Shown in pieces: positions 31,471-60,397 of a DNA stretch of 64,000 nucleotides. Location: contig NC_134036.1 in assembly GCF_964204645.1 (NCBI RefSeq), positions 6,540,600-6,604,599 of the forward strand, read 5' to 3'. Source of the DNA: Tubulanus polymorphus. Its lineage: Eukaryota > Animalia > Nemertea. Position 1 is the first letter of the stretch, and each line of letters opens with the position of its first letter. The notes below the pieces were generated by a model that did no database searches, was not told where the DNA came from, and worked only from the letters and a program-made list of their open reading frames with translations. Position numbers and translations under genes: made by a program.

Positions 31471-32204
31471 ATGGATTCTGTAGAATTTTTCGGTAAGCAA
31501 CAATATCTTTTCTCTTTTTTATTTGTATTTTTTTCAAGTTCTACTTCTATACTTTTTACTTCTAAACCCTTTTTTCATTACAATAGGTATCCTGAATCCA
31601 TTTTTTCCTAATTGAGCTTATTTGGTACTAAATATGCTGTTTGGCTTTATCGCCACGCAGCCCGGTAAGACCAATCAACTAAATATCACTATCATTTATG
31701 ATTTTCAGATATCAATTTCACAATCTTTTACTTTTTCAACCATTGGTAACAAAATTATTTCAATTTAGGTGACCGATACCGGTTACTGGAAATAATACTG
31801 GGGGCGATTACCGAAATCCGTACATCGGATCCAGGTATAGAACTAATATTAATTTATTCAGTTACTGAATTTCTTCACTCGCCAATTCGTAGCAATTCGC
31901 TTCATAACCATATTTACAATTTTAACATAACCATAACATTTCAAATTATAATAAATACACAATTGTTACTTAAATCCAACTTTCAGCCTCATCTGTGCCT
32001 GGACGTGCCCCCAGGGCCCAAACTCCTGTCCCTTTCGTGGGCACGCGGAAGAGCAAACGAAAGAGCAAGGGGAAGTCAAGCAGCTTCCCTACACGTCATC
32101 ATCCCTATTCCCGACCTCTCAACCCGTCATCAAGTTCGGGTGTAGATCCTGTACCGTCTGGTTCAGGTCTACAGCCCCTACAGTTGATCAGGGATGATGA
32201 CTGA
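31471..32204 (+). CDS. Micro-exon antisense gene of an LTR element, subtype D; 3' end runs into minisatellite
   Basis: Exons 31471-31492, 31617-31664, 31769-31834, 31987-32204, all phase-1 GT-AG. Product MDSVEFFAYLVLNMLFGFIATQPGDRYRLLEIILGAITEIRTSDPASSVPGRAP...RKSKRKSKGK...RHHPYSR. Confidence 0.75.
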
Positions 32205-32941
32205 GGGTACAGTACAATCAGTTTGTAAGGGGGGAGATGACTGAGGTTACAATGCAATCAGTCTGCAAGGAGAGATGACTGAGGGTACAGTACAATCAGT
32301 ATGCAAGGGGAGATGACTGAGGGTACAGTACAATCAGTCTGTAAGGGGAGATGACTGATGGTACAGCACAATCAGTCTACAAGGAGAGATGACTGAGGGT
32401 ACAGTGCAATCAGTATGCATGGGGAGATGACTGAGGGTACAGTACAATCAGTCTGCAAGGAGAGATGACTGAGGGTACAGTACAATCAGTATGCAAGGGG
32501 AGATGACTGAGGGTACAGTACAATCAGTTTGTGAGGGGATATCACTGAGGGTCCAGTACAATAAGTCTGTAAGGGGAGATTGCTGATGGTACAGTACAAT
32601 CATTCTGCAAGGAGAAATGACTGAGGGTACAGTACAATCAGTCTGCAAGGAGAGATGACTGAGGGTACAGTACAATCAGTCTGCAAGGGGAGATAGATGA
32701 CTGAGGGTACAGTACAATCAGTTTGTAAGGGGAGATGACTGAGGGTACAGCACAATCAGTCTGCAAGGGGAGATGACTGAGGTTACAGCACAATCAGTCT
32801 GCAAGGGGAGATAGATGACTGAGGGTACAGTACAATCAGTTTGTAAGGGGATATCACTGAGGGTACAGTACAACCAGTATGCAATGGGAGATGACTGAGG
32901 GTACAGTACAATCAGTATGCAAGGGGAGATGACTGAGGGTA
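32191..32941. repeat. 38-bp minisatellite array
   Basis: Unit ggggagatgactgagggtacagtacaatcagtctgcaa. Confidence 0.97.
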
Positions 32942-33540
32942 TGTTGTGGGGTTTTTTTTCCCAGTGTCGTGTGTTGACCACCTGTGTTGTTTGCGTTTCA
33001 CCAGCGTAGTTCCTTGGGGTTCTTCTCATAAAATAACTACAACTAGCTTTCTTCTACCGATCCAGATCTTTATTCTTTATACTCTCTTCTTACAATCTTT
33101 CTAGCACGTCTCCTCTAGTTCTAACCACTAGCTCAACCGACCTAGCTCTACCGACCCAGCTTTTATCGACCATACTCCATTAAAACCCTCCCTTTTTATA
33201 CTTATTCTTCCTTCGCTCGTGACGTATATTTCCACACCGCTTGGCATCATAGCCTGTGACGTATTATCGTATTACTACAGTTCTACTTGCCATGTAAATC
33301 ATTTCTACGTGTGTTATACGTCACGAGCGCTAAATTTTTAACTCAACTTTCTAGAGCTCAAGGCTGCTGCTATAACAAGCTTTCCCACGTAGACACCTAC
33401 GTCACTCCACCTATCTTCTATGCTTCTCTCTTATGTGTGACGTAAGTATTCACGTAGGTTGTCTGCTTACCGCAACTACTGCCTTGAACTCCGGCTTTTT
33501 TTCCGGTTGTTTAAATAGGTAATTTATTCCTCCAAAACCA

Positions 33541-33551
33541 TCCCCCTTTCC
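33541..33551 (-). promoter_or_regulatory. Polypurine tract
   Basis: tccccctttcc on + strand immediately inside the LTR; equivalents near 40438, 43601, 50224 and 53393. Confidence 0.7.
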
Positions 33552-33983
33552 AGACGATTGGACCCCCAATTGCAAAAAAATTACTGGCCCGTTTGCATTT
33601 CCGAAGATTTTTGTTCAAATTTTTGTTTTGTTAAAAGAGCCGCAGCCAGCAAAAGTGCAAAATCAGTACCCCTTACTTTGATGAACAATTTTTTTTTCTA
33701 ACAACTTCTTTCACCTCTTGAACTTTATCGTAAGGTAATAAAAATGGTACTTCATGATAAATGATATAACAATCTTGCAACTGATGCACATAAATTTTCA
33801 ACATCTGGATGGTAGAGAGAGAAAAAAAACCCTTTATTTTTTTTCCTTCTGACCAGCAACGATAACATTACACCTGGCCAGAAAGTCACCCTTGATACTG
33901 AGTACAATTCCGATCTCTTAAACATTTTACTTCCATCCGCCATATAGACAAAACCATCATCACCATCCGGATTAGCATTTACA

Positions 33984-35281
33984 ATGGACCCAATAGAGTT
34001 TTTCGGTAAGCAACTTATTTTAGATACTTTAAACTAACACACCAATAATTCTGTACAGTTTTATCGTTACATGCGATAATACATTTATGCGCCACTCTTG
34101 CACTTTGTTATTTTAATCGGTCACATCGACCCTGATAAGATCTATCAACCCATGCCTTACTTCTAAAAATGTGAACAATTTAATACTAGAAAAACCTTGA
34201 ATTTTAACAATATTAGTCATGTAACTATAATTATTAATCGTAAATACGTTAATTGCACCTCAGTCCATTCCATTACCGTTGTATTATAATATGCAACAAT
34301 ACTTTTATATATACTATTCTTTTTTTTCTCCATTATATATGTTAATCATCATTACCAAGGTACTGTACGGCAACGTACTAATACTGTGCTTCAAAGCATG
34401 AAGTATATAAGATTAGAAACCTCAAAATTAACAACATATATATCCCATTCTGTCATATTTTTTTTTTCATATCAGCCTCACTGGTCCTACACATGCTGTA
34501 TGGCTTCATACTAGCGCAGCCCGGTAAGACTTCTTAATTCATTTTATGTACTAAAAAACAATTTATAATTGCTTTTCTAACATACTTTTGTAACGCAGGC
34601 GATCGACAGAAATTATTAAATATAATTCGGGCTGCCACTACTGACTTACGCGCCACTTTTTCAGGTATACATTCTATATATCTTTCTTTATAACTATAGT
34701 TCATACGTATTTATTTATTCATTTCGTATACCATTAGTTATATCAGGGAAGTGTGATGAGATGATGATGCGCATCACACTTCCCTGGTTATATGTTCTAA
34801 TTCTAATAACTATACAATCGCAACGCCACGAACACAATTCCACATGTTACCTGTACATACATTGTTTATTTACTTAGGGCTCTCAGTTCCATTCACCCCT
34901 CCCCCAACACGAGGGCAACATACGGCGCGGCAAAGGGGCACGGGATGGGGGCAACCAAGCGGCGGCACCCTCCGCATGCACCCCTATTTCCGTCGTACTA
35001 ACGCGCCCACAGACCGGAGCGTGGACCCCTCACCCTCCGGTCTGGGGCCACAGTCTCTACCCCATAACCGCATGTCTTCATCCCCCAGTACCTCTTCTCC
35101 CAATCCAACTCTCTTCCTCGACCTCTCTCAGCACCCCCTCCTATCACTTGGAGTTCCCGATTCCCCTCCTGTACCTGATTCCCCTTTTTTACCTGATTCC
35201 CATTCCAAATATCCCATTCTTCACATCCCTGATACCCCTGCCAGCCCTTCTGCAAGCAGCACCTCTAGTTCTAACCACTAG
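33984..35281 (+). CDS. Micro-exon antisense gene, subtype B, 179 aa
   Basis: Exons 33984-34005, 34476-34523, 34599-34664, 34878-35281. Product MDPIEFFASLVLHMLYGFILAQPGDRQKLLNIIRAATTDLRATFSGLSVPFTPPP...RMHPYFRR followed by a Ser/Pro-rich tail. Confidence 0.75.
34744..34786. mobile_element. 43-bp mini DNA transposon
   Basis: Perfect 15-bp TIR cagggaagtgtgatg/catcacacttccctg and 7-bp duplication gttatat. Absent from paralogs near 44800 and 54590. Confidence 0.8.
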
Positions 35282-35822
35282 CTCAACCGACCTAGCTCTA
35301 CCGACCCAGCTTTTTCGACCACACTCCATTAAAACCCTTCCTTTTCATACTTATTCTTCATTCGCTCGTGACGTATATTTCCACACCACTTGGGATCATA
35401 GCCAGTGACGTATTATCATATTAATACAGTTCTACTGGCTACGTAAATCATTTCTACATGTGTTATACGTCACGAGCGCTAAATTTATAACTCAACTTTC
35501 TAGAGCTCAAGGCTGCTGCTATAACAAGCTTTCCCACGTAGATACCTACGTCACTCTCACCTAAATTCTATGCTTCTCTCTTATGTGTGACGTAAGTATT
35601 CACGTAGGTTGCCTGCTTACTGCAACTACTGCCTTGAACTCCGGCTTATTTTCCCGTTGTCTAAATAGGTAATTTATTAGGGGAGATTAGGTAAGGGGAG
35701 ATGACTGAGGTGAACTCAACCGTAAAGCAATAAAGCATAATGTCATCTTCATCAGCAATATCTCTGCTAAAAATATACCTATTTATATATAATAAATACG
35801 ATTCCCAATCTTTAGTTAGCGT

Positions 35823-38362
35823 TGATCCACAGCTAGATTTTCGTAGTATTTGAAAATGTTTCGTAGTATTTAGAAATGTTCTTAATGTTGTTTCCGTATG
35901 CGTGGGGGTTACGTTAAAGCCGTCAGACAAGAACGTACTAGTAGTAAGAATTACGAAAGTTCTTGTTTGATGCTTTCATCTATCAACGCAAACCATAAAT
36001 CAGTCTATAAACAACAATTCTTTCTCGGTTCTTCTGCTGTGAGATCTGGCAAACATTCAGAAAATCTTTATATAAAACTTTTAAATACTTGGAACCATAT
36101 TTGGTTGGGTCGGAACAATGGAGTGTATTGATCCGCAGCAAGATTCCGTAGTAACTAAAAAAATGTTTGTAATGATGGTTTTTTGTTTGCGTTGGTGGTT
36201 TCTTTATGGGTATCAGACAGCAAACGATGTGTGCAAGTTGTTGTTTGATGCTTTGATCTATCAGCGCTGACAATAAATCAGCCAGGGGTAAAAATAATTC
36301 TTTCTCGGTTCTTGTGCTGCGATATCTGGCAAACATTCAGAATTATTTTTAAACTTAAGGATAGACGGAACTGTAATTGGTTGGGTCGGAACGATGAGGT
36401 GCTTTGATAATGTGGTTTGTGCAGGGATCTCGCTGTTACTTCTTGATACTCCCGACTACTTTCTATAAAAGGAAGAACCGGAAGTATAGGAAGACATTGT
36501 TGTTTTGCTTTATCCTGTATTATAATAGAGTTAGTTAAATTATAAATGAAAATTGGTATAATAAGTATAGGATGATTTTAGATTTGATAATTAATTACAT
36601 TGTATTTCTGAATCAAAAGTTTACTATTGTTAATTGGAAAAAGAAACGATGAGTTTGTTCCATAATCTAGGTGAAAACTAAGTTTTGAAAATATATCTAA
36701 ATTAAGTATCCTGGATGTTAATTAAGGACAAGACCTTTATAATCGCTTAAGTTTTATGGAAGTTTAATGGTGGCAAATATCAATACTAGCTCTCTAAGGT
36801 TTCTGTTGGTGTACATGTCTGTTGGTAACTCGTAGAGAATAGCTGCTCTCTCAACGATGATGAGTAGGGAGTGAGTAAATCAAAGCGCGTCATGACAGGA
36901 GGGTTGGAAAGAAAAGTTACTTTGGCAAATCAGTTTCTCAAATAATTTTAGATTAGCGAATCATTAAGGCTAATTCTACATGTCCAAAACCGTCATGACA
37001 GCTAGGTTGCTGCTCCTTGCCAAAAGTCGAACGGGAGAGTCGGCATTCTAGGAATGCCGATCTTTTCCATAAAAGAGGCCCGCAGTCTTGAGAAAGCAGA
37101 CTTACCAGGGACGCTCGTTAAGATACTTGAGATTTGGGTGGAAATACCAGAATTAAGACGGGTTGCCAACAGTAGTGTACGATAGGAATTTGGAGTTAGG
37201 AATTGGACTGTGTACTATCTGGAGATATTACTATCATCAAGGTAAATAAAATCTATATTATTATTATTATATTCAATCAGAATTTCGGCATTTTAGTTTA
37301 ATTATTTGGGTTTGTGCACGGACACGTTCTCTCGCCAGGGACCGATCTTTACGTTTTTATATTCAACGATTAAGGAGAGGATTGTGAGCGGTGTATCAGT
37401 ATTTATAATGAGGCTCGTGAAGGGATCACGCTGATACTTGATGATATTCCCGGCTACTTTCCGTAAAAGGAAAAACCGGAAGTTTAGGAAGATGTGGTTG
37501 TTTTGCTTATTCTGTATTAAAATAGAATTAGTTAAATTGTAGATAAAATAATTAGTATAAGTATTTCAAATAATTTAAGAATTGATAATCAATCACAATG
37601 TATTCCGATCGTAGTTAGTTATAATAATTAAAAAAGAAACAATGAATTTGTACTGTAATTAGAAAAGAAAACAAAGTTTTGAAAAGATATTTAATTTGAG
37701 TAATCTATATGTTGTTTAAGAACAAATTGTTAATAATCGCTAATGTTTTAGAAAAATTAATTTGTGTTAAATGTTAAAACTAGCTGTCTGAAGTTTCTGT
37801 TGTCTGTATGCGCTCGTTGGTAATTCACAGATAATAGCTGCTCTCTCAACAACGACTAGCAAGGAGTGAGTAAATCACAACGCGTCATGACAGGAGGGTT
37901 GGAAGAAAAAGTTTATATCAGCAAATCAGTTTCTAAAAAAAACCTTTAGATCAGCAAATCAGTAGGGCTAAATTTTCCGTAACTAAAAACGGTCATGACA
38001 GTTGGGTAGCTGCTCCTTGCCGAAAAGCGGAAGACCCTGCGTGGGAGAATCGGAATTCTGAGAATGCCGGTTCTTTCTACAAAAGGGGGCCGCTATCGAG
38101 AGGGAGGGCAGAATCTGTACCTTAGTAAGACGAGTGTCGACAGCAGGACAGGAGAAGCTTCGGAACGATAGGGATTCATATACAATAGGGATTAGGAAAA
38201 TCATTCTTTGTTCAACGTAAATAAAATATATTATCTTCAAGATTATCATCCGGTATTTCAATTTATTCATTCGGATTTGTGCACGGACACGTTCTCTCGC
38301 CAGGGCCTTACTCAAGTATTTTATAGATAACGATTAAAAAGAGGATTGTGACCGGTGTATCA
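35823..38362 (+). mobile_element. 5' LTR of family A containing a nested solo LTR
   Basis: Starts tgatcc, ends gtatca, followed by a PBS. Confidence 0.8.
36129..37398 (+). mobile_element. Solo LTR, family A, 1270 bp
   Basis: tgatcc...gtatca ends with 4-bp TSD gtat (36125-36128, 37399-37402). Confidence 0.9.
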
Positions 38363-38363
38363 C

Positions 38364-38376
38364 TGGTGCCGAAACC
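38364..38376 (+). promoter_or_regulatory. Primer binding site, tRNA-Phe
   Basis: tggtgccgaaacc, 1 nt after the LTR end, complementary to the eukaryotic tRNA-Phe 3' end (...GGUUUCGGCACCA). Confidence 0.85.
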
Positions 38377-38429
38377 GTATTGATTAATTATTGTGTCGAG
38401 CTTTTATTACTTGTAATTTATTAATTTTA

Positions 38430-38972
38430 ATGGTTCGAATTTTTACTTGTTCACACTGTGGTTCGAAGAACGCATTCTCAAAGAAGCGCCGCACTCCAGT
38501 AAACAGGCCGACACAGGCATTGTGGGATTCGAACCCACCCCGTGCACGACCATTTCAGATCCCGGAGGAGTATCGGGAACCATTGTGGGATTCGAACCCA
38601 CCGATTAAGCCTTTCGAAATACCGGAAGAGCACCGGGAGCCTTTGTGGGATTCAAACCCACCGATTCCAAAGGCATTAGGTTTGATTGAAGATAATCAGG
38701 AGCCATTGTGGGATACGAACCCACCGCTTACCTCGGTCTCCCCCGCTGAGCCCTTGTGGGAACCAAACCCACGTGCTACACAGCACGAGGCGCCAGCTCT
38801 GGTCACCTTTGGGGATTCGAACCCCTCGGAACGCCGGCGCAGAGTACGGCTGGTAAAGGTGCAAGACAAGTTCGACCCGTTCTGGGTACACTTTTTTCGG
38901 GATTTCGCGAACCCTTACGACTTCATTTTTGGGGATGAAGACGCGAATGGTTACTTTCTTTGCTCAGCCTAA
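38430..38972 (+). CDS. 180-aa unknown protein with CxxCG and about six LWDSNPP-type repeats, in the LTR-A internal region
   Basis: First ORF after the PBS. GC-richer than its flanks. Paralogous motifs at 39172 and ~60272. Confidence 0.6.
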   Translation: MVRIFTCSHCGSKNAFSKKRRTPVNRPTQALWDSNPPRARPFQIPEEYREPLWDSNPPIKPFEIPEEHREPLWDSNPPIPKALGLIEDNQEPLWDTNPPLTSVSPAEPLWEPNPRATQHEAPALVTFGDSNPSERRRRVRLVKVQDKFDPFWVHFFRDFANPYDFIFGDEDANGYFLCSA

Positions 38973-39171
38973 ATAGAGTTGGCTAGAGGGCGTCAATTTT
39001 CTTAATATTATCATTCTAGTATTCAATTGTTAATTAATTATTTATTACTATTTTTAAATTGGTTTAATATTATCATTTAAGTATTTAATTATTGATTAAT
39101 GATTTAATTATTATACAACCAGATTTAACTTATAATTGGTTTGCTATTTTAATATTTTACTATTGTTATAC

Positions 39172-39489
39172 ATGTCGGTTGGGTTGAAGTGTGGTCACTG
39201 CGGGGCTACGGTTTATAAAACACATACACTTGCCCCAGCTCCCAAGTCTAGTTGGGAAATACCGGCTCACCTAAGGGAGCCGCTGTGAGAATCGAACCCA
39301 CCCAGCATTAAAGGTACCACCACCGTCGGGGCTGTGGGACAGCCAGTGAGGGACTCGAACCCTCCACCCGGTGGATTAACCGATAGCGATACGTCTTTCT
39401 GGGATCAGGGGGATTTTAGTTTGTGCGCTATCCCTGATCACAACATATTGGTAGCCGACAGGTCGCGGGTATACGGCTACTTTGAGTGA
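39172..39489 (+). pseudogene. Paralog of the CxxCG/WDSNPP ORF with one internal TGA
   Basis: MSVGLKCGHCGATVYK...WEIPAHLREPL*ESNPP...; TGA at 39286 where paralogs have TGG. Confidence 0.6.
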
Positions 39490-39625
39490 CTTTGAGGGAT
39501 TCTAGATTGCTTAACACTTGATGATCATACATTTTCTTTCTATTAATATTATTATCAATTGTTTATGTCGGGCCGATAACGGTAAGGGTAACAACCAAAC
39601 GCCGTAGCGCTGGTTATTTGGGTGC

Positions 39626-41278
39626 TGTTGTGGTGTTGAATTTTGAGGTTGTCCGCTTCTGTTGTGATCTCTACCACTGTTATGGTTGCGTTTCTCTATC
39701 AGCGATGTCGTGCAGGATCTGTCTTAAGGCCAGGTCTTTCTTCCCAGTTCTTGACTTTGGCTCCCGTATATAACTTAACTACTTCTTAAATTATATATTC
39801 GTTTATTATCTCTTAACTCGTTGTTTACAGATTCTTCCCCGGAGCTCAACTCCCGTGCTTACTAAAAACCCCCTTATTTATCTAACTTTCTCTTGTATAA
39901 CCGGTGCAGGAGCTCTTCTATACATGGCTTGGAATTCATTGCTTGTGATGTATTTATACGTCACAACATTCCTCCCTATTTATATAACTTTAACGTGTGC
40001 AGGTCCTCTTCCACACATGGCTTGGAATTCATTGCTTGTGACGTATTTATACGTCACAACATTCCTTCCATCCATGTATGGGCGCTGACGTATCTGCACA
40101 CGTCATAATTTTCTATAAATATATTTCCGCACTCAACGGAGCGCATAACCGGACCATATTAGCTCTTCCTACGTTGACACATACGTCACTTCCAGACTTG
40201 TTTATTTATATAATTTCTATTTATGTTCATGTACGACGTACATATCCAGGCAGGTTGTCTGGTAACTGTACTGCTGGCCATGAACTCCCGCTTCTGTATA
40301 TTACTTGTTGATTTTGTTTAAATGCTGACAACTGAAACCTACTAATGTGTTTCCTAAAGGCTTGTTGATATAATTTCATAGATCTACTTGGAAGCTAATA
40401 TTTTCATTAATTATTTCATCAAAGTCTCCATAATATATCCCCCGGCCCAGGTCGTTTGCCCTCAAACGACAAAATTAATGCAGTCCGAATTTTCAGAAGA
40501 CCCCTAAAATTGATGTCAAAACGCCAGGTATCAGCTGCCAACACCAAACATCATCAGTACACAATAAACGAATACAACATCCATTTTCTCTTGAACTCAA
40601 CCGTAAAGCAATAAAACATAATGTCATTTTCCTCAACACAATCTCTGCTAAAAATATACATACTCATAACCAAGAAGTACGACCCAAAAAATCTTTTAGT
40701 CAGTATAACACACAATTCTTCATCCAACGAACACGCAATTTTTACACTTAAAGGATTTACTATGAATTCCGTTGACTTCTTCGGTAAGCAACAATATATC
40801 TCTTCTTTTTAAGTTCTAAAGTCCTATCTCTATACCTTTATTTCTAACTCTTTTTTCAATACAATATGTATCTTGAATCCATCATTTATTTTATTCCTCT
40901 TCTTTTTTCTTTTTTTTTTTTTTATTTTAGCCTATTTGGTACTGAATATGCTGTACGGCTTCATTGCCGCCCAGCCTGGTAAGACCAATAAACTATGTAC
41001 TAACATCATTCATTATTTACTGATATCAATTTTACAAGTTTATTTTTTTTTTTTTTCTTAACCATTGGGTAACAATATTATTTTCAATTTAGGTAACCGA
41101 TATCGGTTACTGGCAATTATACTGAGGGCAATCAATGACAGTAGTGCATCGGATCCAGGTATAGAACTTAACTAATATTGATTTATTCATTTACTGATTT
41201 TTTTTTTTTTTTCTTTTTTTCACTTGCCAATTCGTAACAGTTCGCTTAATAATAATATTTACAATTTTTAACATAATT
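39626..41278 (-). mobile_element. LTR family C fragment: 3' LTR 39626-40437, PPT, antisense gene exons 1-3
   Basis: Same tgttgtgg terminus as family B, diverged U3 homology (caggttgtctg...gaactcc), PPT at 40438. Confidence 0.7.
40762..41158 (+). pseudogene. Micro-exon antisense gene, subtype C (exons 1-3 only)
   Basis: Exons 40762-40783, 40931-40978, 41093-41158 give MNSVDFFAYLVLNMLYGFIAAQPGNRYRLLAIILRAINDSSASDP. Confidence 0.7.
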
Positions 41279-41717
41279 ATAGTGCCCCACCCCGAAAGAG
41301 GTGTCTCGTTGCGGTGCGCTTGACACCCGCAGCTCCGACATCAATAGCTGCAGCACGGTCACCTTCTAGGGACAATAGTGGGACTCCGTATTCCCGGCTA
41401 ACGGACTTTGAGTTACAAGACTGATATGTTGTAAATTCCCTCATTTCATTCTCTCATACAAAGCTCATTTCACTTCCACCATCTGGTAGAACCTATCGGC
41501 CAGCAGTCCACGTAAGGCTAAATTAGCTAAGAAATAGCATACTGCTGAGCGGTAGAGTTCTACTTCAGATATAGACCCTTTCCTCTCTCGCCACTCTCCC
41601 ACCTGCACTCACGCGGTACACCAATAAATTCCCATTTTTCTCTCTGTAATATTTGGACTTCTATTCAGTGGATTTTGGACATATATAGTTTTTCTGGCTT
41701 CAGGTAGCTTTATATCA

Positions 41718-42309
41718 AAATGTTAAAACTAGCTGTCTGAAGTTTCTGTTGCATGTATGCGCTCGTTGGTAATTCACAGACAATAGCTGCTCTCTCAACA
41801 ACGACTAGCAAGGAGTGAGTAAATCACAACGCGTCATGACAGGAGGGTCGGAAGAAAAAGTTTATATCAGCAAAACAGTTTCTAAAAAACCTTTAGATCA
41901 GCAAATCAGTAGGGCTAAATTTTCCGTAACTAAGTACGGTCATGACAGTTGGGTAGCTGCTCCTTGCCAAAAAGCGGAAGACCCTGCGTGGGAGAATCGG
42001 AATTCTGAGAATGCCGGTTCTTTCTACAAAAGGGGGCCGCTATCGAGAGAGAGGGCAGAATCTGTACCTTAGTAAGACGAGTGTCGACAGCAGGACAGGA
42101 GAAGCTTCGGAACGATAGGGATTCATATACAATAGGGATTAGGGAAATCATTCTTTGTTCAAGGTAAATAAAATATATTATCTTCAAGATTATCATCCGG
42201 TATTTCAATTTATTCATTCGGATTAGTGCACGGACACGTTATCTCGCCAAGGCCTTACTCAAGTATTTTATAGATAACGATTAAAGAGAGGATTGTGACC
42301 GGCGTATCA
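41718..42309 (+). mobile_element. 3' half of an LTR, family A (duplicate at ~51508-52100)
   Basis: Near-identical to ~37770-38362. Confidence 0.85.
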
Positions 42310-42310
42310 G

Positions 42311-42992: not shown

Positions 42993-45703
42993 TGTTGTGG
43001 GGGTCCTTTTCCCAGTGTTAGGTGTCGTGTGTTGACCACCTGTGTTGTTTGCGTTTCACCAGCGTAGTTCCTTGGGGTTCTTCTCATAAAATAACTACAA
43101 CTAGCTTTCTTCTACCGATCCAGATCTTTATTCTTTATACTCTCTTCTTAAAATCATTTTAGCACGTCCCCTCTAGTTCTAACCACTAGCTCAACCGACC
43201 TAGCTCTACCGAACCAGCTTTTATCGACCAAACTCCATTAAAACCCTTCCCTTTTATACTTATTCTTCCTTCGCTCGTGACGTATATTTCCACACCGATT
43301 GGCATCATAGCCTGTGACGTATTATCGTATTACTACAGTTCTACTGGCCATGTAAATCATTTCTACGTGTGTTATACGTCACGAGCGCTAAATTTATAAC
43401 TCAACTTTCTAGAGCTCAAGGCTGCTGCTATAACAAGCTTTCCCACGTAAATACCTACGTCACTCTCACCTATCTTCTATGCTTCTCTCTTATGTGTGAC
43501 GTAAGTATTCACGTAGGTTGCCTGCTAACCGCAACTACTGCCTTGAACTCTGGCGTATTTTCCTGTTGTCTAAATAGGTAATTTATTACTCCAATACTAC
43601 TCCCCTTTCCAGACGATTGGACCGCCAATCGCCAAAACAAAATACTGAGGCCCGTTTGCATTTCCAAAGATTTTTGTTCAAAGATTTTTTTTGTTAAAAG
43701 AGCCGCATCCAGCAAAATTGCAAAATCAGTACCCCTTACTTTCATGAACAATTTTTTTTTTCTAACAACTTCTTTCACCTCTTGAACTTTACCGTAAGGT
43801 AATAAAAAATGGTGCTTCAAGATAAATGATATAACAATCTTGCAACTGATGCACGTAAATTTTCAACATCTGGATGGTAGAGAGAGAAAAGAAAACGCAT
43901 TTATTTTTTTTTCTTCTGACCAGCAACAATAACAGTACACCTGGCCAGAAAGTCAACCTTGATACTGAGTAAAATCCCCATCTCTTAGACATTTTACTTC
44001 CATCCGCCATATAGACTAAACCATCATCACCATCCGGATTAGCATTTACAATGGACCCAATAGAGTTTTTCGGTAAGCAACTTATTTTAGATACTTTAAA
44101 CTAACACACCAATCATTTTGTACAGTTTTATCGTTACATGCGATAATACATTATGCGCCACTCTTGCAATTTGTTATTTTAAACGGTCACATCGACCCTG
44201 ATAAGATCTATCAACCCATGCGTTACTTCTAAAAATGTGAACAATATAATATCAGAAAAACCTTGAATTTTAACAATATTAGTCATGTAACTATAATTAT
44301 TAATCGTAAATACGTTAATTGCACCTCAGTCCATTCCATTACCGTTGTATTATAATATGCAACAATACTTTTATATACACTATTCTTTTTTCCATTGTAT
44401 ATGTTAATCAGCATTACCAAGGTACTGTACGGCAACGTACTAATACTGTGCTTCAAAGCATGAAGTATATAAAATTAGAAACCTCAAAATTAAAAACATA
44501 TATATCCCATTCTGTCATATTGTTTTTTTCATATCAGCCTCACTGGTCCTACACATGCTGTATGGCTTTATACTAGCGCAGCCCGGTAAGACTTTTTAAT
44601 TCATTTTATGTACTAAAAAAACAATTTATAATTGCTTTTCTAACATACTTTTGTAACGCAGGCGATCGACAGCAATTATTAAATATAATTCGGGCTGCCA
44701 CTACAGACTTACGCGCCGCTTTTTCAGGTATACATTCTATATATCTTTTTTTTATAACTATAGTTCATACGTATTTATTTATTCATTTCTTATATCATTA
44801 GTTATATGTTCTAATTCTAATAATTATACAATCGCAACGCCACGAACACACTTCCATATGTAACCTGTACATACATTGTTCAATTACTTAGGGCTCTCAG
44901 TTCCATTCACCCCTCCCCCAACACGAGGGCAAAATACGGCGCGGCAAAGGGGTACGGGAAGGGGGCAACGAAGCGGCGGCACCCTCCGCATGAACCTTTA
45001 TTCCCGTCGCACTAACGCGCCCACACACCGGAGCGTGGACCCCTCACCCTCCGGTCTGGGGCCACAATCTCTACCCCATAACCGCATGTCCCCATCCCCC
45101 AGTACCTCTTCTCCCAATCCAACTCTCTTCCTCGACCTCTCCCAGCACCCCCTCCTATCACTTGGAGTTCCCGATTCCCCTCCTGTACCTGATTCCCCTT
45201 TTTACCTGATTCCCATTCCAGATATCCCATTCTTCACATCCCTGATACCCTGCCAGCCCTTCTGCTAGCAGCACCTCTAGTTCTAACCACTAGCTCAACC
45301 GACCTAGCTCTACCGACCCAGCTTTTTCGACCACACTGCATTAAAACCCTCCCTTTTTATACTTATTCTTCCTTCGCTCGTTCCTTCGCTTATATTTCCA
45401 CACCGCTTGGCATCATAGCCAGTCACGTATTACCATATTAATACAGTTCTACTGGCTATGTAAATCATTTCTACGTGTGTTATACGTCACGAGCGCTAAA
45501 CTTATAACTCAACTTTCTAGAGCTCAAGGCTGCTGCTATAACAAGCTTTCCCACGTAGATACCTACGTCACTCTCACCTATCTTCTATGCTTCTCTCTTA
45601 TGTGTGACGTAAGTATTCACGTAGGTTGCCTGCTAACCGCAACTACTGCCTTGAACTCCGGCTTATTTTCCCGTTGTCTAAATAGGTAATTTATTACTCC
45701 AAT
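42993..45703 (-). mobile_element. Family B LTR element with 4-bp TSD, inserted in the minisatellite
   Basis: ggta on both flanks (42989-42992, 45704-45707); the right LTR end appears a few nt short. Confidence 0.8.
44051..45268 (+). CDS. Micro-exon antisense gene, subtype B (late frameshift relative to the 33984 copy)
   Basis: Exons 44051-44072, 44538-44585, 44662-44727, 44892-45268. Confidence 0.6.
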
Positions 45704-45733
45704 GGTACAGTACAAACAGTCTGCAAAGGGAGA

Positions 45734-46424: not shown

Positions 46425-48380
46425 GAGATGACTGAGGTACTGTACAATCAGTCTGTAAGGGAAGATGACTGATGATACAGTACAATCTGTCTGTAAGGTA
46501 AGATGACTGAGGGTACAGTACAATCAGTCTGCAAGGAGAGATGACTGAGGCTACAGTACAATCAGTCTGTAAGGGAGGATGACTGATGGTGCAGTACAAT
46601 CAGTCTGTAAGGGAAGATGACTGAGGGTACAGTACAATCAGTCTGTAAGGGAAGATGACTGAGGGTACAGTACAATCAGTCTGTGAGGGAAGATGACTGA
46701 GGTACAGTACAATAAGTCTGTAAGGGAAGATGACTGAGGGTACAGTACAATCAGTCTGTAAGGGGAGATGACTGAGGTGAACTCAACCGTAAAGCAATAA
46801 AGCATAATGTCATCTTCATCAGCATATCTCTGCTAAAAATATACCTATTTATATATAATAAATACGATTCCCAATCTTTAGTTAGTAAAACACACAAGTT
46901 CACATCTAAAGGATTCAGTATACACACAATTTTACATCTGAAGGATTCAGTATAACACACAATTTTACATCTGAAGGATTTATCATGAATTCCGTAGAAT
47001 TTTTCGGTAAGCAACAATATATACATATTTTTTTTAAAGTTCTATCTCTATACTTTTAACTTCTAAACTCTTTATTCATTACAATATGTATCTTGAATCT
47101 ATTTTGTCTCCAATTCAGCGTATTTGGTATTAAACATGCTCTATGGCTTCATCGCCGCCCAGCCCAGTACAATCAGTCTGCAAAGGCAAGATGACTGAGG
47201 GTACAGTACAATCAGTCTGCAAGGGGAGATGACTGAGGGTACAGTACAGTCTGCAAGGGGAGATGACTGAGGGTACAGTACAATCAGTCGGTAAGGGGAG
47301 ATGACTGAGGGTATAGTACAGTCTGCAAGGGGAGATGACTGAGGGTAAAGTACAATCAGTCTGCAAGGGGAGATGACTGAGGGTATAGTACAACCAGTCT
47401 GCAAGGGGAGATGACTGAGGGTACAGTACAATCAGTATGCAAGGGGAGATGACTGAGGGTACAGTACAATCAGTCTACAAGGGGAGATGACTGAGGGTAC
47501 AGTACAATCAGTATGCAAGGAGAGATGACTGAGGGTACAGTACAATCAGTCTGCAAGGGGAGATGACTGAGGGTACAGTACAATCAGTTTTTAAGGGGAG
47601 ATGACTGAGGGTACAGTACAATCAGTTTGTAAGGGGAGATGACTGAGGGTACAGTACAGTACAGTCTGCAAGGAGAGATGACTGAGGGTACAGTACAACC
47701 AGTCTGCAAGGGGAGATGACTGAGGGTATAGTACAACTAGTCTGCAAGGGGAGATGACTGAGGGTACAGTACAATCAGTTTGTAAGGGGAGATGACTGAG
47801 GGTACAGTACAATCAGTCTGCAAGGGGAGATGACTGAGGGTACAGTACAGTCTGCAAGGGGAGATGACTGAGGGTACAGTACAATCAGTATGCAAGGAGA
47901 GATAACTGAGGGTACGGTACAATAAGTATGTAAGGAGAGATGACTGAGGGTACAGTACAATCAGTTTGTAAGAGGAGATGACTGAGGGTACAGTGCGATC
48001 AGTCTGCAAGGAGAGGTGATTGAGGGTACAGTACAACCAGTCTGTATGGTGAGAGGACTGAGGGTACACTACAATCAGTCTGCAAGGAGAGAGGACTGAG
48101 GGTACAGTACAGTCAGTATGCAAGGAGAGATGACTGAGGGTACAGTACAATCAGTTTGTAAGAGGAGATGACTGAGGGTACAGTACGATCAGTCTGCAAG
48201 GGGAGATGACTGAGGGTACAGCACAATCAGTAAGCAAGGAGAGATGACTGAGGGTACTGTACAATCAGTATGCAAGGAGAGATGACTGAGGGTACAGTAC
48301 AATCAGTTTGTAAGAGGAGATGACTGAGGGTATAGTACGATCAGTCTGCAAGGAGAGGTGATTGAGGGTACAGTACAATC
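46425..48380. repeat. 38-bp minisatellite arrays flanking an embedded gene fragment (46779-47165)
   Basis: Same unit; interrupted by unique-looking sequence. Confidence 0.95.
46985..47165 (+). pseudogene. Micro-exon gene fragment (exons 1-2); duplicate at 57519-57703
   Basis: MNSVEFF|AYLVLNMLYGFIAAQP, cut by the minisatellite at the exon-2 donor. Confidence 0.7.
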
Positions 48381-50547: not shown

Positions 50548-50938
50548 ATGAATTCCGTTGACTTCTTCGGTAAGCAACAATATATCTCTTCTTTTTAAGT
50601 TCTAAAGTCCTATCTCTATACCTTTATTTCTAACTCTTTTTTCAATACAATATGTATCTTGAATCCATCATTTATTTCTTCTTTTTTCTTTTTTTTTTTT
50701 TTTATTTTAGCCTATTTGGTACTGAATATGCTGTACGGCTTCATTGCCGCCCAGCCTGGTAAGACCAATAAACTATGTACTAACATCATTCATTATTTAC
50801 TGATATCAATTTTACAAGTTTAATTTTTTTTTTTTTCCTAACCATTGGGTAACAATATTATTTTCAATTTAGGTAACCGATATCGGTTACTGGCAATTAT
50901 ACTGAGGGCAATCAATGACAGTAGTGCATCGGATCCAG
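50548..50938 (+). pseudogene. Micro-exon gene, subtype C, duplicate (exons 1-3)
   Basis: Exons match those of 40762-41158. Confidence 0.7.
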
Positions 50939-52101: not shown

Positions 52102-52783
52102 TAAAATCAGTTTGTAAGGGGGAGATGACTGAGGTTACAGTGCAATCAGTCTGCAAGAAGAGATGACTGAGGGTACAGTACAATCAGTCTGCAAGAAGAG
52201 ATGACTGAGGATACAGCACAATCAGTCTGCAAGGGGAGATGACTGAGGGTACAGCACAATCAGTCTGCAAGGGGAGATGACTGAGGGTACAGTACAATCA
52301 GTTTGTAAGGGGATATCACTGAGGGTACAGTACAATCAGTCTGCAAGGAGAGATGACTGAGGGTACAGTACAATCAGTATGCTAGGGGAGATGACTGAGG
52401 GTACAGTACAATCAGTCTGTAAGGGGAGATGACTGAGGGTACAGTACAATCAGTATGCTAGGGGATATCACTGAGGGTACAGTACAATCAGTCTGTAAGG
52501 GGAGATGACTGAGGGTACAGCACAATCAGTCTGCAAGGGGAGATGACTGAGTGTACAGCACAATCAGTCTACAAGGGGAGATGACTGAGGGTAAAGTACA
52601 ACCAGTCTGTAAGGGGAGATGACTGATGGTACAGTACAATCATTCTGCAAGGAAAGATGACTGAGGGTACAGTACAATCAGTCTGCAAGGGGAGATGACT
52701 GAGGGTACAGTACAATCATTTTGTGACGGGATATCACTGAGGGTCCAGTACAATAAGTCTGTAAGGGGAGATGACTAAGGGTA
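52102..52783. repeat. 38-bp minisatellite array
   Basis: Duplicate of 42311-42992. Confidence 0.97.
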
Positions 52784-53843
52784 TGTTGTGGGGGTCCTTT
52801 TCCCAGTGTTAGGGTGTCGTGTGTTGACCACCTGTGTTGTTTGCGTTTCACCAGCGTAGTTCCTTGGGGTTCTTCTCATAAAATAACTACAACTAGCTTT
52901 CTTCTACCGATCCAGATCTTTATTCTTTATACTCTCTTCTTAAAATCATTTTAGCACGTCCCCTCTAGTTCTAACCACTAGCTCAACCGACCTAGCTCTA
53001 CCGAACCAGCTTTTATCGACCAAACTCCATTAAAACCCTTCCCTTTTATACTTATTCTTCCTTCGCTCGTGACGTATATTTCCACACCGATTGGCATCAT
53101 AGCCTGTGACGTATTATCGTATTACTACAGTTCTACTGGCCATGTAAATCATTTCTACGTGTGTTATACGTCACGAGCGCTAAATTTATAACTCAACTTT
53201 CTAGAGCTCAAGGCTGCTGCTATAACAAGCTTTCCCACGTAAATACCTACGTCACTCTCACCTATCTTCTATGCTTCTCTCTTATGTGTGACGTAAGTAT
53301 TCACGTAGGTTGCCTGCTAACCGCAACTACTGCCTTGAACTCTGGCGTATTTTCCTGTTGTCTAAATAGGTAATTTATTACTCCAATACTACTCCCCTTT
53401 CCAGACGATTGGACCGCCAATCGCCAAAACAAAATACTGAGGCCCGTTTGCATTTCCAAAGATTTTTGTTCAAAGATTTTTTTTGTTAAAAGAGCCGCAT
53501 CCAGCAAAATTGCAAAATCAGTACCCCTTACTTTCATGAACAATTTTTTTTTTCTAACAACTTCTTTCACCTCTTGAACTTTACCGTAAGGTAATAAAAA
53601 ATGGTGCTTCATGATAAATGATATAACAATCTTGCAACTGATGCACGTAAATTTTCAACATCTGGATGGTAGAGAGAGAAAAGAAAACGCATTTATTTTT
53701 TTTTTCTTCTGACCAGCAACAATAACAGTACACCTGGCCAGAAAGTCACCCTTGATACTGAGTAAAATCCCCATCTCTTAGACATTTTACTTCCATCCGC
53801 CATATAGACTAAACCATCATCACCATCCGGATTAGCATTTACA

Positions 53844-55060
53844 ATGGACCCAATAGAGTTTTTCGGTAAGCAACTTATTTTAGATACTTTAAACTAACAC
53901 ACCAATCATTTTGTACAGTTTTATCTTTACATGCGATAATACATTATGCGCCACTCTTGCACTTTGTTATTTTAAACGGTCACATCGACCCTGATAAGAT
54001 CTATCAACCCATGCGTTACTTCTAAAAATGTGAACAATATAATATCAGAAAAACCTTGAATTTTAACAATATTAGTCATGTAACTATAATTATTAATCGT
54101 AAATACGTTAATTGCACCTCAGTCCATTCCATTACCGTTGTATTATAATATGCAACAATACTTTTATATACACTATTCTTTTTTCCATTGTATATGTTAA
54201 TCAGCATTACCAAGGTACTGTACGGCAACGTACTAATACTGTGCTTCAAAGCATGAAGTATATAAAATTAGAAACCTCAAAATTAAAAACATATATATCC
54301 CATTCTGTCATATTGTTTTTTTCATATCAGCCTCACTGGTCCTACACATGCTGTATGGCTTTATACTAGCGCAGCCCGGTAAGACTTTTTAATTCATTTT
54401 ATGTACTAAAAAAACAATTTATAATTGCTTTTCTAACATACTTTTGTAACGCAGGCGATCGACAGCAATTATTAGATATAATTCGGGCTGCCACTACTGA
54501 CTTACGCGCCGCTTTTTCAGGTATACATTCTATATATCTTTTTTTATAACTATAGTTCATACGTATTTATTTATTCATTTCTTATATCATTAGTTATATG
54601 TTCTAATTCTAATAATTATACAATCGCAACGCCACGAACACAATTCCACATGTTACCTGTACATACATTGTTCAATTACTTAGGGCTCTCAGTTCCATTC
54701 ACCCCTCCCCCAACACGAGGGCAAAATACGGCGCGGCAAAGGGGTACGGGAAGGGGGCAACCAAGCGGCGGCACCCTCCGCATGCACCTTTATTCCCGTC
54801 GCACTAACGCGCCCACACACCGGAGCGTGGACCCCTCACCCTCCGGTCTGGGGCCACAATCCCTACCCCATAACCGCATGTCCCCATCCCCCAGTACCTC
54901 TTCTCCCAATCATACTCTCTTCCTCGACCTCTCCCAGCACCCCCTCCTATCACTTGGTGTTCCCGATTCCCCTCCTGTACCTGATTCCCCTTTTTACCTG
55001 ATTCCCATTCCAGATATCCCATTCTTCACATCCCTGATACCCTGCCAGCCCTTCTGCTAG
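53844..55060 (+). CDS. Micro-exon antisense gene, subtype B duplicate
   Basis: Same exon structure as 44051-45268. Confidence 0.6.
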
Positions 55061-55425
55061 CAGCACCTCTAGTTCTAACCACTAGCTCAACCGACCTAGC
55101 TCTACCGACCCAGCTTTATCGACCACACTGCATTAAAACCCTCCCTTTTTATACTTATTCTTCCTTCGCTCGTTCCTTCGCTTATATTTCCACACCGCTT
55201 GGCATCATAGCCAGTCACGTATTACCATATTAATACAGTTCTACTGGCGTTGTAAATCATTTCTACGTGTGTTATACGTCACGAGCGCTAAACTTATGAC
55301 TCAACTTTCTAGAGCTCAAGGCTGCTGCTATAACAAGCTTTCCCACGTAGATACCTACGTCACTCTCACCTATCTTCTATGCTTCTATCTTATGTGTGAC
55401 GTAAGTATTCACGTAGGTTGCCTGC

Positions 55426-56703
55426 TGATCCGCAGCAAGATTCCGTAGTAACTAAAAAATGTTTGTAATGTTGGTTTTTGTTTGCGTTGGTGGTTTCTTT
55501 ATGGGTATCAGACAACAAACGATGTAGTATAAAATTGTGCAAGTTGTTGTTTGATGCTTTGATCTATCAGCGCTGACAATAAATCAGCCAGGTGCAAAAA
55601 TAATTCTTTCTCGGTTCTTGTGCTGCGATATCTGGCAAACATTCAGAATTATTTTTAAACTTAAGAATAGACGGAACTGTAATTGGTTGGGTCGGAACAA
55701 TGAGGTGCTTTGATAATGTGGTTTGTGCAGGGATCTCGCTGTTACTTCTTGATACTCCCGACTACTTTCTATAAAAGGAAGAACCGGAAGTATAGGAAGA
55801 CATTGTTGTTTTGCTTTATCCTGTATTATAATAGAATTAGTTAAATTATAAATGAAAATTGGTATAATAAGTATAGAATGATTTTAGATTTGATAATTAA
55901 TTACATTGTATTTCTGAATCAAAAGTTTACTATTGTTGATTGGAAAAAGAAACGATGAGTTGTTCCATAATCTAGGTGGAAACTAAGTTTTGAAAATATA
56001 TCTAAATTAAGTATCCTGGATGTTAATTAAGGACAAGACCTTTATAATCGCTTAAGTTTTATGGAAGTTTAATTGTGGCAAATATCAATACTAGCTCTCT
56101 AAGGTTTCTGTTGGTGTACATGTCTGTTGGTAACTCGTAGAGAATAGCTGCTCTCTCAACAATGATAAGCAAGGAGTGAGTAAATCAAAGCGCGTCATGA
56201 CAGGAGGGTTGAAAAGAAAAGTTACTTTGGCAAATCAGTTTCTCAAATAATTTTAGATTAGCGAATCATTAAGGCTAATTCTACATGTCCAAAACCGTCA
56301 TGACAGCTAGGTTGCTGCTCCTTGCCAAAAGTCGAACGGGAGAGTCGGCATTCTAGGAATGCCGATCTTTTCTATAAAAGAGGCCCGCAGTCTTGAGAAA
56401 ACAGACCTACCAGGGACGCTCGTTAAGATACTTGAGATTTGGGTTGAAATACCAGAATTAAGACGGGTTGCCAACAGTAGTGTACAATAGGAATTTAGAG
56501 TTAGGAATTGGACTGTGTGCTATCTGGAGATATTACTATTATCAAGGTAAATAAAATCTATTTTATTATTATTATATTCAATCAGAATTTCGGCATTTTA
56601 GTTTGATTATTTGGGTTTGTGCACGGACACGTTCTCTCGCCAGGGACCGATCTTTACGTTTTTATATTCAACGATTAAGGAGAGGATTGTGACCGGTCTA
56701 TCA
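55426..56703 (+). mobile_element. Solo LTR, family A, 1278 bp
   Basis: tgatcc...ctatca ends with TSD ctgc; empty site gttgcctgctaacc near 45626. Confidence 0.92.
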
Positions 56704-56756
56704 CTGCTAACCGCAACTACTGCCTTGAACTCCGGCTTATTTTCCCGTTGTCTAAA

Positions 56757-58955
56757 CAGTCTGCAAAGGGAGATGACTGAGGTACAGTACAATCAGTCTG
56801 TAAGGGAAGATGACTGATGATACAGTACAATCAGTCTGTAAGGGAAGATGACTGATGGTACAGTACAATCAGTCTGTAAGGGAAGATGACTGATGGTACA
56901 GTACAATCAGTCTGTAAGGGAAGATGACTGAGGGTACAGTACAATCAGTCTGCAAGGAGAGATGACTGAGGCTACAGTACAATCAGTCTGTAAGGGAAGA
57001 TGACTGATGGTACAGTACAATCAGTCTGTAAGGGAAGATGACTGATGGTACAGTACAATCAGTCTGTAAGGGAAGATGACTGATGGTACAGTACAATCAG
57101 TCTGTAAGGGAAGATGACTGAGGGTACAGTACAATCAGTCTGTAAGGGAAGATGACTGATGGTACAGTACAATCAGTCTGTGAGGGAAGATGACTGATGT
57201 ACAGTACAATCAGTCTGTAAGGGAAGATGACTGAGGGTACAGTCCAATAAGTCTGTAAGGGAAGATGACTGAGGGTACAGTACACTCAGTCTGTAAGGGT
57301 GATGACTGAGGTGAACTCAACCGTAGAGCAATAAAGCATAATGTCATCTTCATCAGCAATATCTCTGCTAAAAATATACCTATTTATATATAATAAATAC
57401 GATTCCAATCTTTAGTTAGTAAAACACACAAGTTCACATCTAAAGGATTCAGTATACACACAATTTTACATCTGAAGGATTCAGTATAACACACAATTTT
57501 ACATCTGAAGGATTTATCATGAATTCCGTAGAATTTTTCGGTAAGCAACAATATATATATATATATTTTTTTTTAAGTTCTATCTCTATACTTTTAACTT
57601 CTAAACTCTTTATTAATTACAATATGTATCTTGAATCAATTTTGTCTCTAATTCAGCGTATTTGGTATTAAACATGCTCTATGGCTTCATCGCCGCCCAG
57701 CCCAGTACAATCAGTCTGCAAAGGCAAGATGACTGAGGGTACAGTACAATCAGTCTGTAAGGAGAGATGACTGAGGGTACAGTACAATCAGTCTGCAATG
57801 GGAGATGACTGAGGGTACAGTACAATCAGTTTGTAAGGGGAGATGACTGAGGGTACAATACAATCAGTCTGCAAGGGGAGATGACTGAGGGTACAGTACA
57901 GTCTGCAAGGGGAGATGACTGATGGTACAGTACAGTCTGCAATGGGAGATGACTGAGGGTACAGTACAATCAGTTTGTAAGGGGCGATGACTGAGGGTAC
58001 AGTACAACCAGTCTGCAAGGGGAGATGACTGAGGGTACAGTACAATCAGTTTGTAAGGGGAGATGACTGAGGGTACAGTACAATCAGTCTGCAAGGGGAG
58101 ATGACTGAGGGTACAGTACAGTCTGCAAGGAGAGATGACTGAGGGTATTGTACAACCAGTCTGCAAGGGGAGATGACTAAGGGTACAGTACAATCAGTAT
58201 GCAAGGAGAGATAACTGAGGGTACGGTACAATCAGTCTGCAAGGTGAGATGACTGAGGGTACAGTACAATCAGTTTGTAAGAGGAGATGACTGAGGGTAC
58301 AGTGCGATCAGTCTGCAAGGAGAGGTGATTTAGGGTACAGTACAACCAGTCTGTAAGATGAGAGGACTGAGGGTACAGTACAATCAGTCTGCAAGGAGAG
58401 AGGACTGAGGGTACAGTACAGTCAGTATGCAAGGAGAGATGACTGAGGGTACAGTACAATCAGTTTGTAAGAGGAGATGACTGAGGGTACAGTACGATCA
58501 GTCTGCAAGGGGAAATGACTGAGGGTACAGCACAATCAGTAAGCAAGGAGAGATGACTGAGGGTACAGTACAATCAGTATGCAAGGAGAGATGACTGAGG
58601 GTACAGTACAATCAGTTTGTAAGAGGAGATGACTGAGGGTACAGTACGATCAGTCTGCAAGGGGAGATGACTGAGGGTACAGTACGATCAGTCTGCAAGG
58701 GGAGATGACTGAGGGTACAGCACAATCAGTAAGCAAGGAGAGATGACTGAGGGTACAGTACAATCAGTATGCAAGGAGAGATGACTGAGGGTACAGTACA
58801 ATCAGTTTGTAAGAGGAGATGACTGAGGGTACAGTACGATCAGTCTGCAAGGGGAGATGACTGAGGGTACAGCACAATCAGTAAGCAAGGAGAGATGACT
58901 GAGGGTACAGTACGATCAGTCTGCAAGGAGAGGTGATTGAGGGTACAGTACAATC
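56757..58955. repeat. 38-bp minisatellite arrays flanking an embedded gene fragment (~57311-57703)
   Basis: Same unit. Confidence 0.95.
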
Positions 58956-59057
58956 GATTGGGAGGTGATATTCAGGACCTTGTTTGGAGAGTTTTGTTAC
59001 CAACAGGAGTGTAGGTTAGGGATCGTTTAAAGAGTTAGGATCTGGATTTTATATTCT

Positions 59058-59060
<3 letters not shown>

Positions 59061-59115
<55 letters not shown>
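59061..59115. repeat. (TA)n microsatellite
   Basis: Direct reading. Confidence 0.98.
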
Positions 59116-59119
<4 letters not shown>

Positions 59120-60271: not shown

Positions 60272-60397
60272 TGTGGTCACTGTGGGGCAACGATTTATAA
60301 AACGCACGCGCTTGCTCCAGTTCCCAAGTCTAATTGGGAAATACCGGCTCAGTTAAGGGAGTGTCGGTGGGATTCGAACCCACCAAGTACCAAGTGA
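60272..60397 (+). pseudogene. Fragment of the CxxCG/WDSNPP ORF family
   Basis: CGHCGATIYKTHALAPVPKSNWEIPAQLRECRWDSNPPSTK, homologous to ~39190-39310. Confidence 0.65.

Follow-up and report, generated by a model that had tools for sequence, protein, structure and literature searches.

The window analysed here, a 64,000-nt stretch of contig NC_134036.1 of the nemertean Tubulanus polymorphus (positions 6,540,600 to 6,604,599), raises the question of why the same small set of micro-exons recurs among degraded long terminal repeat (LTR) elements, on the strand opposite to theirs. The first-pass annotation had read these exons as a selected retroelement accessory gene, spliced and expressed antisense from the 3' LTR. 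On balance, we favour the interpretation that deleted, decaying copies of one group of LTR elements carry a selected antisense gene next to the polypurine tract (PPT), with predicted splicing and, as its likely product, a small nuclear regulator of the element. Purifying selection, predicted introns and an antisense position inside the B and C LTR insertions uphold part of the earlier proposal; its copy number and the novelty of the arrangement had been overstated.

Copies, predicted exons and selection

All eight start codons named by the first-pass annotation were found at their coordinates; after each come 19 nt and then GTAAG, and the pattern ATG-N18-GGTAAG occurs eight times on the plus strand of the whole 64 kb and not once on the minus strand. 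Exon 1 (22 nt counted from the ATG) is present in 8/8 copies, a complete 48-nt exon 2 with the donor GTAAGA and a 66-nt exon 3 in six copies each, and exon 4 in four (A and B1-3). Both D copies have exon 2 cut by a 38-bp satellite after about 46 nt, and versions C and D lack exon 4. The introns read from the sequence are phase-1 GT-AG introns, and wherever exons are complete the proposed lengths of 22, 48 and 66 nt were borne out; the predicted junctions 34005^34476, 34523^34599 and 34664^34878 and the intron-1 lengths of 124 and 470 nt likewise match. The intron-1 acceptor of version A is an unusual GAG. A 50-nt hairpin-like insertion in intron 3 (34737-34786) is found in B1 only and is skipped by contigs of run X1; the contig comparisons draw on two DNA runs that contain the stretch, X1 and X2, of one study and possibly of the source sample. 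A third run, X3, perhaps of RNA, had no contig on 32945-42305 and one partial contig on 15000-32185, which speaks neither for nor against expression.

As a copy number, eight was too high. The eight start codons exist, but the copies reduce to four independent versions, A, B (three copies), C (two) and D (two), because the remaining copies arose by local duplication. B3 is a 99% duplicate of B2 and D2 a 97% duplicate of D1, which is itself a 387-bp fragment flanked by satellite arrays. In a self-comparison of the window, block 39626-42307 is repeated at 49413-52098 with 98.6% identity and block 42993-45641 at 52784-55434 with 99%. The natural end of the gene is present in no copy: exon 4 enters satellite in version A, where the adjoining satellite supplies the stop codon, and a deleted 5' LTR in version B, the final codons of B1 falling within that partial repeat. 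The C1 insertion terminates within intron 3, and version A is missing its upstream part, replaced by an X-type LTR that ends at 31402.

Comparison of non-synonymous with synonymous divergence (dN/dS), which the first-pass annotation had proposed as a check, gave ratios of 0.02-0.19 between versions, i.e. purifying selection. Individual values are 0.15 for A/B1 and 0.19 for A/C1 (44 codons each) and 0.08 for A/D1 and 0.017 for C1/D1 (21 codons each), while synonymous sites are saturated in B/C and B/D pairs. The proportion of differing synonymous sites between versions is 0.46-0.82 vs 0.02-0.29 for non-synonymous sites (Fisher tests with rounded counts, P 8e-4 to 5e-8), and in the three pairs tested the predicted frame alone is stop-free among the six. 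Intron 1 of A and B shows a similarity of 0.24 vs 0.22 for shuffles, with exon lengths and phases kept; the introns of A, C and D are still alignable, and these three form a closer group. Exon 4 of A and B1 shares 24 of 58 aligned residues, with different codons at 15 of the 24, and the alignment score was reached by 0/2000 shuffles; on this comparison, the fourth exons of A and B are homologous. An overlapping sense open reading frame (ORF) was considered and rejected, minus-strand frames being at most 32-93 aa long. We consider it very probable that this is a genuine element-borne coding gene.

Predicted product

Exons 1-3 encode 45 residues whose hydrophobic positions are helically spaced on either side of a Gln-Pro-Gly-Asp/Asn-Arg turn, with helical hydrophobic moments of 0.9-1.25 and an acidic N-terminus; 11/16 positions of exon 2 are invariant across the four versions. 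Exon 4 is Ser/Pro-rich and contains a basic tract and, in two of the four copies that retain it (A and B1), an R-x2-PY motif, which we take to resemble a PY nuclear-import signal. Homologue searches used single exons or their genomic frames, a scope within which a remote family could still be missed. The exon-4 profile had no match at E 0.001 among 1.84 billion representatives, and the weak searches with the exon-3 and exon-2 frames confirmed 0/464 and 0/299 candidates, respectively, at E 10. Pfam searches with exon 4 (A and B1) returned no family and those with the exon 2 and 3 frames none above cut-off, PDB yielded chance-level matches only, and the Atlas gave no usable match to B1 exon 4. 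Among viral contigs, 0/44 pattern matches were confirmed. The exon-1-plus-donor pattern had no match in viral or genome contigs and four in metagenomes, all within long prokaryote-type ORFs lacking exon 2. The first-pass annotation had recognised no protein family either. That the product acts as a nuclear transcription regulator is a tentative assignment, which we hold with slightly less than even confidence.

The hydrophobic run over exons 1-2 (KD19 1.54-1.66) could instead belong to a small membrane or secreted product of the same gene, with exons 1-2 as signal or anchor, exon 3 as an amphipathic helix and exon 4 as a basic tail serving particle traffic or cell-to-cell spread; phase-1 introns are generally held to follow signal peptides often. 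We think this unlikely, since residues 1-7 carry a net charge of -1 or -2, His or Asn occurs in the core, the exon 1-2 segment has a clear hydrophobic moment and the invariance of exon 2 exceeds usual signal-peptide conservation.

The basic tract and import-like motif of exon 4 would also suit a Rev/Rex/CERV-like protein, whose helices would oligomerise while the basic tail binds unspliced genomic RNA and exports it. A precedent exists in an animal LTR retrotransposon, Cer1 of C. elegans, whose spliced accessory protein CERV is nuclear and exports genomic RNA (PMC10309623). Common to both would be a spliced, nuclear accessory protein of an animal LTR element, but the mRNA encoding CERV is a spliced Cer1 transcript, apparently not the product of an antisense gene, and CERV shows no sequence link to the window protein. 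With a basic tract only loosely conserved between A and B and no family match, this function appears as doubtful as the membrane one.

In its approximately 45 residues, helix-proline turn-helix layout and regular hydrophobic spacing, the ordered part of the favoured nuclear regulator resembles D/D domains (Dpy-30, RIIa) and the C-terminal half of SAM domains. A SAM domain consists of five helices and about 65 residues. It was rejected as a candidate because 45 ordered residues are too short and the candidate upstream exon is non-coding. D/D domains (R1D2, R2D2 and DPY-30) have a PxxP or Pxx[LIV] loop and YF in helix II (PMC8339350), whereas the loop here is P-G-D/N-R and helix II has I-I or I-L/R and no YF; single-exon searches for this domain gave no match at E up to 10.

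Carrier elements and the upstream block

On the minus strand of B and C, a purine tract, the LTR start, TATA, AATAAA and CAACA follow in order, which identifies the complete LTR as the 3' LTR, with the gene pointing away from it in antisense orientation. This agrees with the earlier placement of TATA, polyadenylation signal and PPT on the strand opposite the gene, with the ATG approximately 320-440 nt inward; we place the ATG about 440 nt from the PPT in B2 and 315 nt from it in C1. All five B and C insertions in the window carry the gene, and in all five the PPT lies directly before the 3' LTR. The two LTR families differ, being similar over a 39-nt stretch only, and the 3' end of both is CAACA. 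The 5' terminus of LTR B is ATTGGAG rather than TG (43589-43595 and 45697-45703, by the B2 duplication), as is that of a piece of a related LTR, located at 5955 in the opposite orientation; non-TG ends occur in a minority of annelid elements (PMC8220671).

The terminal direct repeats of B1 and B2 have 385-430 nt in common at approximately 95%, the 5' repeat being partial. The distance between both LTRs of B1 or B2 is 4.9%, and corresponding LTRs of the two elements differ by 3.4-4.7%, which fits one B insertion followed by duplication; B1 is the older duplicate of the B2 insertion (93%), with an identical left junction in satellite. Target-site duplications of 4 bp remain in two of the five insertions (GGTA in B2, GTGC in C1), the ends of B1, B3 and C2 being altered, and would suit Ty3/Gypsy elements. 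A joined form without C1 is present in a DNA contig that links 39621 to 41282, with a short side of 140 letters in run X1 and 26 in run X2. In element B a deletion spans the interval between R of the 5' LTR and exon 4, the primer-binding-site region is deleted in both B and C, and gag-pol is absent among the 22 ORFs of at least 120 aa in the window. Versions A and D have no remaining carrier LTR. For single pieces of A and of a neighbouring DNA transposon, summed contig depth is about 40-60; it is 150-400 on B internal sequence, 70-150 on C internal sequence and 500-660 on LTR B; it hints at few further copies and is not a copy number.

In element X1, which hosts C1, the interval 38363-39400 (plus strand) has a primer site resembling tRNA-Phe, followed by a 180-aa ORF with repeated PLWDSNPP-like units. 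These are built around GGGATTCGAACCC, which recurs and matches a tRNA B box in reverse complement. The ORF has no Pfam family, and none of 829 candidate homologues was confirmed.

The micro-exons and canonical introns look host-like, and the missing carriers of A and D would allow a host gene family that was captured by or overlaid with LTR elements, in which case the selection would concern host paralogues and bring the element no gain. We judge this improbable: B and C are flanked by target-site duplications, two different LTR families hold the gene in identical place and orientation, and an upstream block is common to B, C and D, so that four separate captures would be required. Least probable are Penelope-like carriers, elements with pseudo-LTRs, 5' truncation, retained introns, hammerhead ribozymes and reverse transcriptase plus GIY-YIG, which the partial second repeat of B and the intron-internal end of C might recall, given the purine tract directly before the repeat in 5/5 B and C copies, the fixed 4-bp duplications, the U3-TATA-AATAAA-CA order and an Rfam search that found no hammerhead or other match at E up to 1, save AT-repeat noise.

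Upstream of the element-borne gene, an AG at -10/-9, i.e. 8 nt before the ATG, is found in 8/8 copies and 4/4 versions, and a donor-like block in all seven copies retaining the region, with C|GTA(A/G) at one aligned position in B, C and D. These features suggest an additional candidate intron of 151-250 nt preceded by a non-coding leader exon, with candidate leader junctions at 33729^33976 and 40602^40754, and exon 1 would then probably be a 30-nt exon including 8 nt of leader. A coding role of the upstream block was rejected, as the frame has a stop in B without an acceptor and no in-frame ATG in C. Between the end of the candidate upstream exon and the 3' LTR lie approximately 200 nt in B and 170 nt in C, a distance compatible with transcription starting in or near the 3' LTR, the start that we consider moderately favoured. 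Right before the D start codons (46884-46980 and 57418-57514) a 33-bp unit is tripled, with a candidate acceptor in each unit.

We hypothesize that the antisense transcript would begin inside the 3' LTR or slightly inward of it, with a non-coding leader exon, and be spliced to a short mRNA. Since the RNA that is packaged represents the opposite strand, on which splice signals are unreadable, the introns would survive reverse transcription. Exons 1-3 may fold as two amphipathic helices about the Gln-Pro-Gly turn and pair with a partner, and exon 4 would form a disordered tail with its basic tract and import-like motif. The protein would then enter the nucleus and damp or time the transcription driven by the 5' LTR, a role like that of HBZ and APH-2 in human T-cell leukemia viruses (HTLV). 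TGACGT/ACGTCA occurs five times in 603 nt (B) and six times in 807 nt (C) vs 21 times in 26 kb (Poisson P about 1e-4), and the U3 regions of B and C have a TGACGT density approximately 10 times background, which would point to CREB/ATF factors as the most probable target, in parallel with HBZ and APH-2.

Several observations weigh against this interpretation. The exon side of the candidate leader donor is weak (ACC or ATC), and the upstream block also contains a plus-strand AATAAA, which could be a poly(A) signal or an internal promoter element; maize Grande gene23, for instance, has an upstream promoter of its own (PMC7264820). The presence of CRE-like sites within an LTR requires no partner protein, and no bZIP or other Pfam family match of single exons backs the CREB idea. 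The N-terminal stretch, at a 19-residue hydropathy of 1.5-1.7, is borderline for a membrane segment. All copies are truncated, none has a natural C-terminus, and the window lacks gag, pol and env, so that linkage to an autonomous element is presumptive. B1-B3 are without detectable selection (two synonymous and two replacement changes in B1/B2, one and three in B1/B3), and B2 and B3 have lost the PY (HPY) motif and read their exon-4 tail in a different frame from B1. The window copies therefore look dead, selection having acted in the lineages that preceded insertion.

Table 1. Coordinates of the gene versions, carrier elements and satellite arrays in the window.
Feature	Position	Strand	Parts and remarks
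Version A	31471..32204	+	exons 31471-31492, 31617-31664, 31769-31834, 31987-about 32190
Version B1	33984..35281	+	exons 33984-34005, 34476-34523, 34599-34664, 34878-35281
Version B2	44051..45271	+	exons 44051-44072, 44538-44585, 44662-44727, 44892-about 45268
Version B3	53844..55063	+	exons 53844-53865, 54331-54378, 54455-54520, 54684-about 55060
Version C1	40762..41158	+	exons 40762-40783, 40931-40978, 41093-41158
Version C2 (C1 duplicate)	50548..50938	+	exons 50548-50569, 50711-50758, 50873-50938
Version D1	46778..47164	+	exon 1 46985-47006, exon 2 from 47119, satellite-cut
Version D2	57312..57702	+	exon 1 57519-57540, exon 2 from 57657, satellite-cut
Conserved upstream block with candidate donor	33720..33975	+	candidate intron ends at AG 8 nt before ATG
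Candidate donor GT	33730, 43794, 53586, 40603, 50389, 46789, 57323		
Element B1	32942..35679	-	3' LTR 32942-about 33536, PPT to 33551, partial 5' LTR 35262-35679
Element B2	42993..45703	-	whole insertion, GGTA target duplication in satellite
Element B2, 3' LTR	42993-43595	-	complete; TATA 43258, AATAAA 43132; PPT about 43596-43610
Element B2, 5' LTR	about 45270-45703	-	partial; without R/U5, primer-binding site, gag, pol
Element B3	52784..56753	-	solo X2 LTR 55426-56703 (CTGC duplication) within its 5' LTR
Element C1	39626..41281	-	GTGC target duplication, inside X1; 3' LTR 39626-about 40434, PPT 40439-40448
Element C2	49413..51072	-	98.6% duplicate of C1 block
Element X1	35823..42309	+	unrelated non-coding LTR element, opposite orientation, hosts C1
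Solo X2 LTR in X1	36129-37398		GTAT duplication
38-bp satellite, seven arrays (part 1)	32190-32941, 42308-42992, 46426-46777, 47165-48380		
38-bp satellite, seven arrays (part 2)	52099-52783, 56757-57311, 57703-58955		arrays are insertion targets

Genomic setting and relation to known systems

The 27.4-60 kb part of the window consists of LTR pieces nested within the 38-bp satellite. The satellite served as landing site for element B (GGTA) and for a 691-bp solo LTR at 45734-46424 (GAGA), and versions A and D meet it at short words common to both; its unit has a purine run followed by TG and so resembles a PPT/LTR border. A non-coding piece between satellite and LTR C is duplicated (48381-49411 and 58956-60400), and 60272-60387 matches the X1 interior at 39190-39305. 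A DNA transposon at 28124-30950, presumably Kolobok-like, with terminal inverted repeats, a TTAA duplication and an intact 587-aa reading frame for a PF20700 transposase, sits within an X-type LTR, and its empty form is present in DNA contigs. The window also has intronless rhodopsin-family receptors and is thus animal-type DNA; a 325-aa receptor ORF of this family lies in a 4.2-kb duplication (1-4248 and 23094-27396, 97-98%). At 15839-21864 on the plus strand, an intronless CUB/C-lectin/LDLa/LRR/7TM receptor, which we take to be of GRL101 type, spans three ORFs and is matched by thousands of contigs at 80-99% identity in the DNA runs, suggesting a very large family in the genome. Together, these receptors point to an invertebrate, probably a lophotrochozoan. 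Two neighbouring minus-strand ORFs at 11184-12653 resemble pieces of a HECT-type ligase, the 360-aa one being without a Pfam match.

The earlier impression of a novel arrangement went too far, as plants and Botrytis are known to have antisense accessory ORFs ahead of the 3' LTR. In plants, the aORF-3R antisense ORFs lie between pol and the 3' LTR in maize Grande (gene23), rice RIRE2, Silene Retand and bean PvRetro13 (PMC7264820, PMC11963269). The window gene resembles them in its antisense position inward of the 3' LTR (B and C), in a protein conserved across element families and in having no known relatives; tandem repeats lie near Retand, as the satellite does here. In the single tested case, Grande GENE23, the product is nuclear (PMC7264820), a location that is predicted for the window protein. 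The aORF-3R systems differ in having plant hosts, long ORFs and TRP28 or SMC domains, unlike the animal-type genome, three micro-exons and lack of a TRP28/SMC domain found here. The Retand-type Transposase_28 domain was not found by Pfam in exon 4 of A and B1 or in the exon 2 and 3 frames, and the word 'intron' occurs nowhere in PMC11963269. Outside plants, brtn of Boty in Botrytis and Sclerotinia is an antisense extra Ty3/Gypsy gene before the 3' LTR (as cited in PMC7264820 and PMC8365987), alike in position and outside plants but fungal.

HBZ of HTLV-1 and APH-2 are spliced, antisense and nuclear and act on CREB factors, and APH-2 binds CREB without a bZIP (PMC10186651). The window gene shares with HBZ and APH-2/3/4 an antisense position on the 3' LTR side, where it is predicted to be spliced, a small, putatively nuclear product and an LTR with CRE-type sites. 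Those genes belong to mammalian deltaretroviruses, whereas the present one would have three or four introns and micro-exons; no retroviral ORF was found among the window ORFs and no bZIP match among single exons. Our literature searches brought up no animal LTR retrotransposon whose antisense gene bears introns, and subscription papers, Repbase and supplements may contain cases. The word 'antisense' does not occur in the main text of an errantivirus survey (PMC13524379) and occurs once, about small RNAs, in a rotifer paper (PMC5408684). It is a speculative and rather unlikely extension that the gene represents an intron-rich antisense class in animal LTR retrotransposons, in which exons 1-3 form a helix-pair docking module, a minimal mimic of Dpy-30/RIIa or SAM domains; by engaging a chromatin or CREB complex of the host, it would let the element control how active its own LTR is.

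Antisense helper genes are thus known in plants, fungi and deltaretroviruses, and what is new here, as far as our searches reached, would be the micro-exon structure, the animal host and the protein. PMC7264820 asks for attention to antisense and spliced transcripts and describes the function of antisense extra genes as open. Genes of micro-exons on the opposite strand escape ORF-based element annotation, so that many more may be present in animal elements. With an ordered part of 45 residues, the small orphan protein under selection lends itself to study and, if the favoured interpretation is true, HTLV-like antisense regulation would extend to invertebrate retrotransposons.

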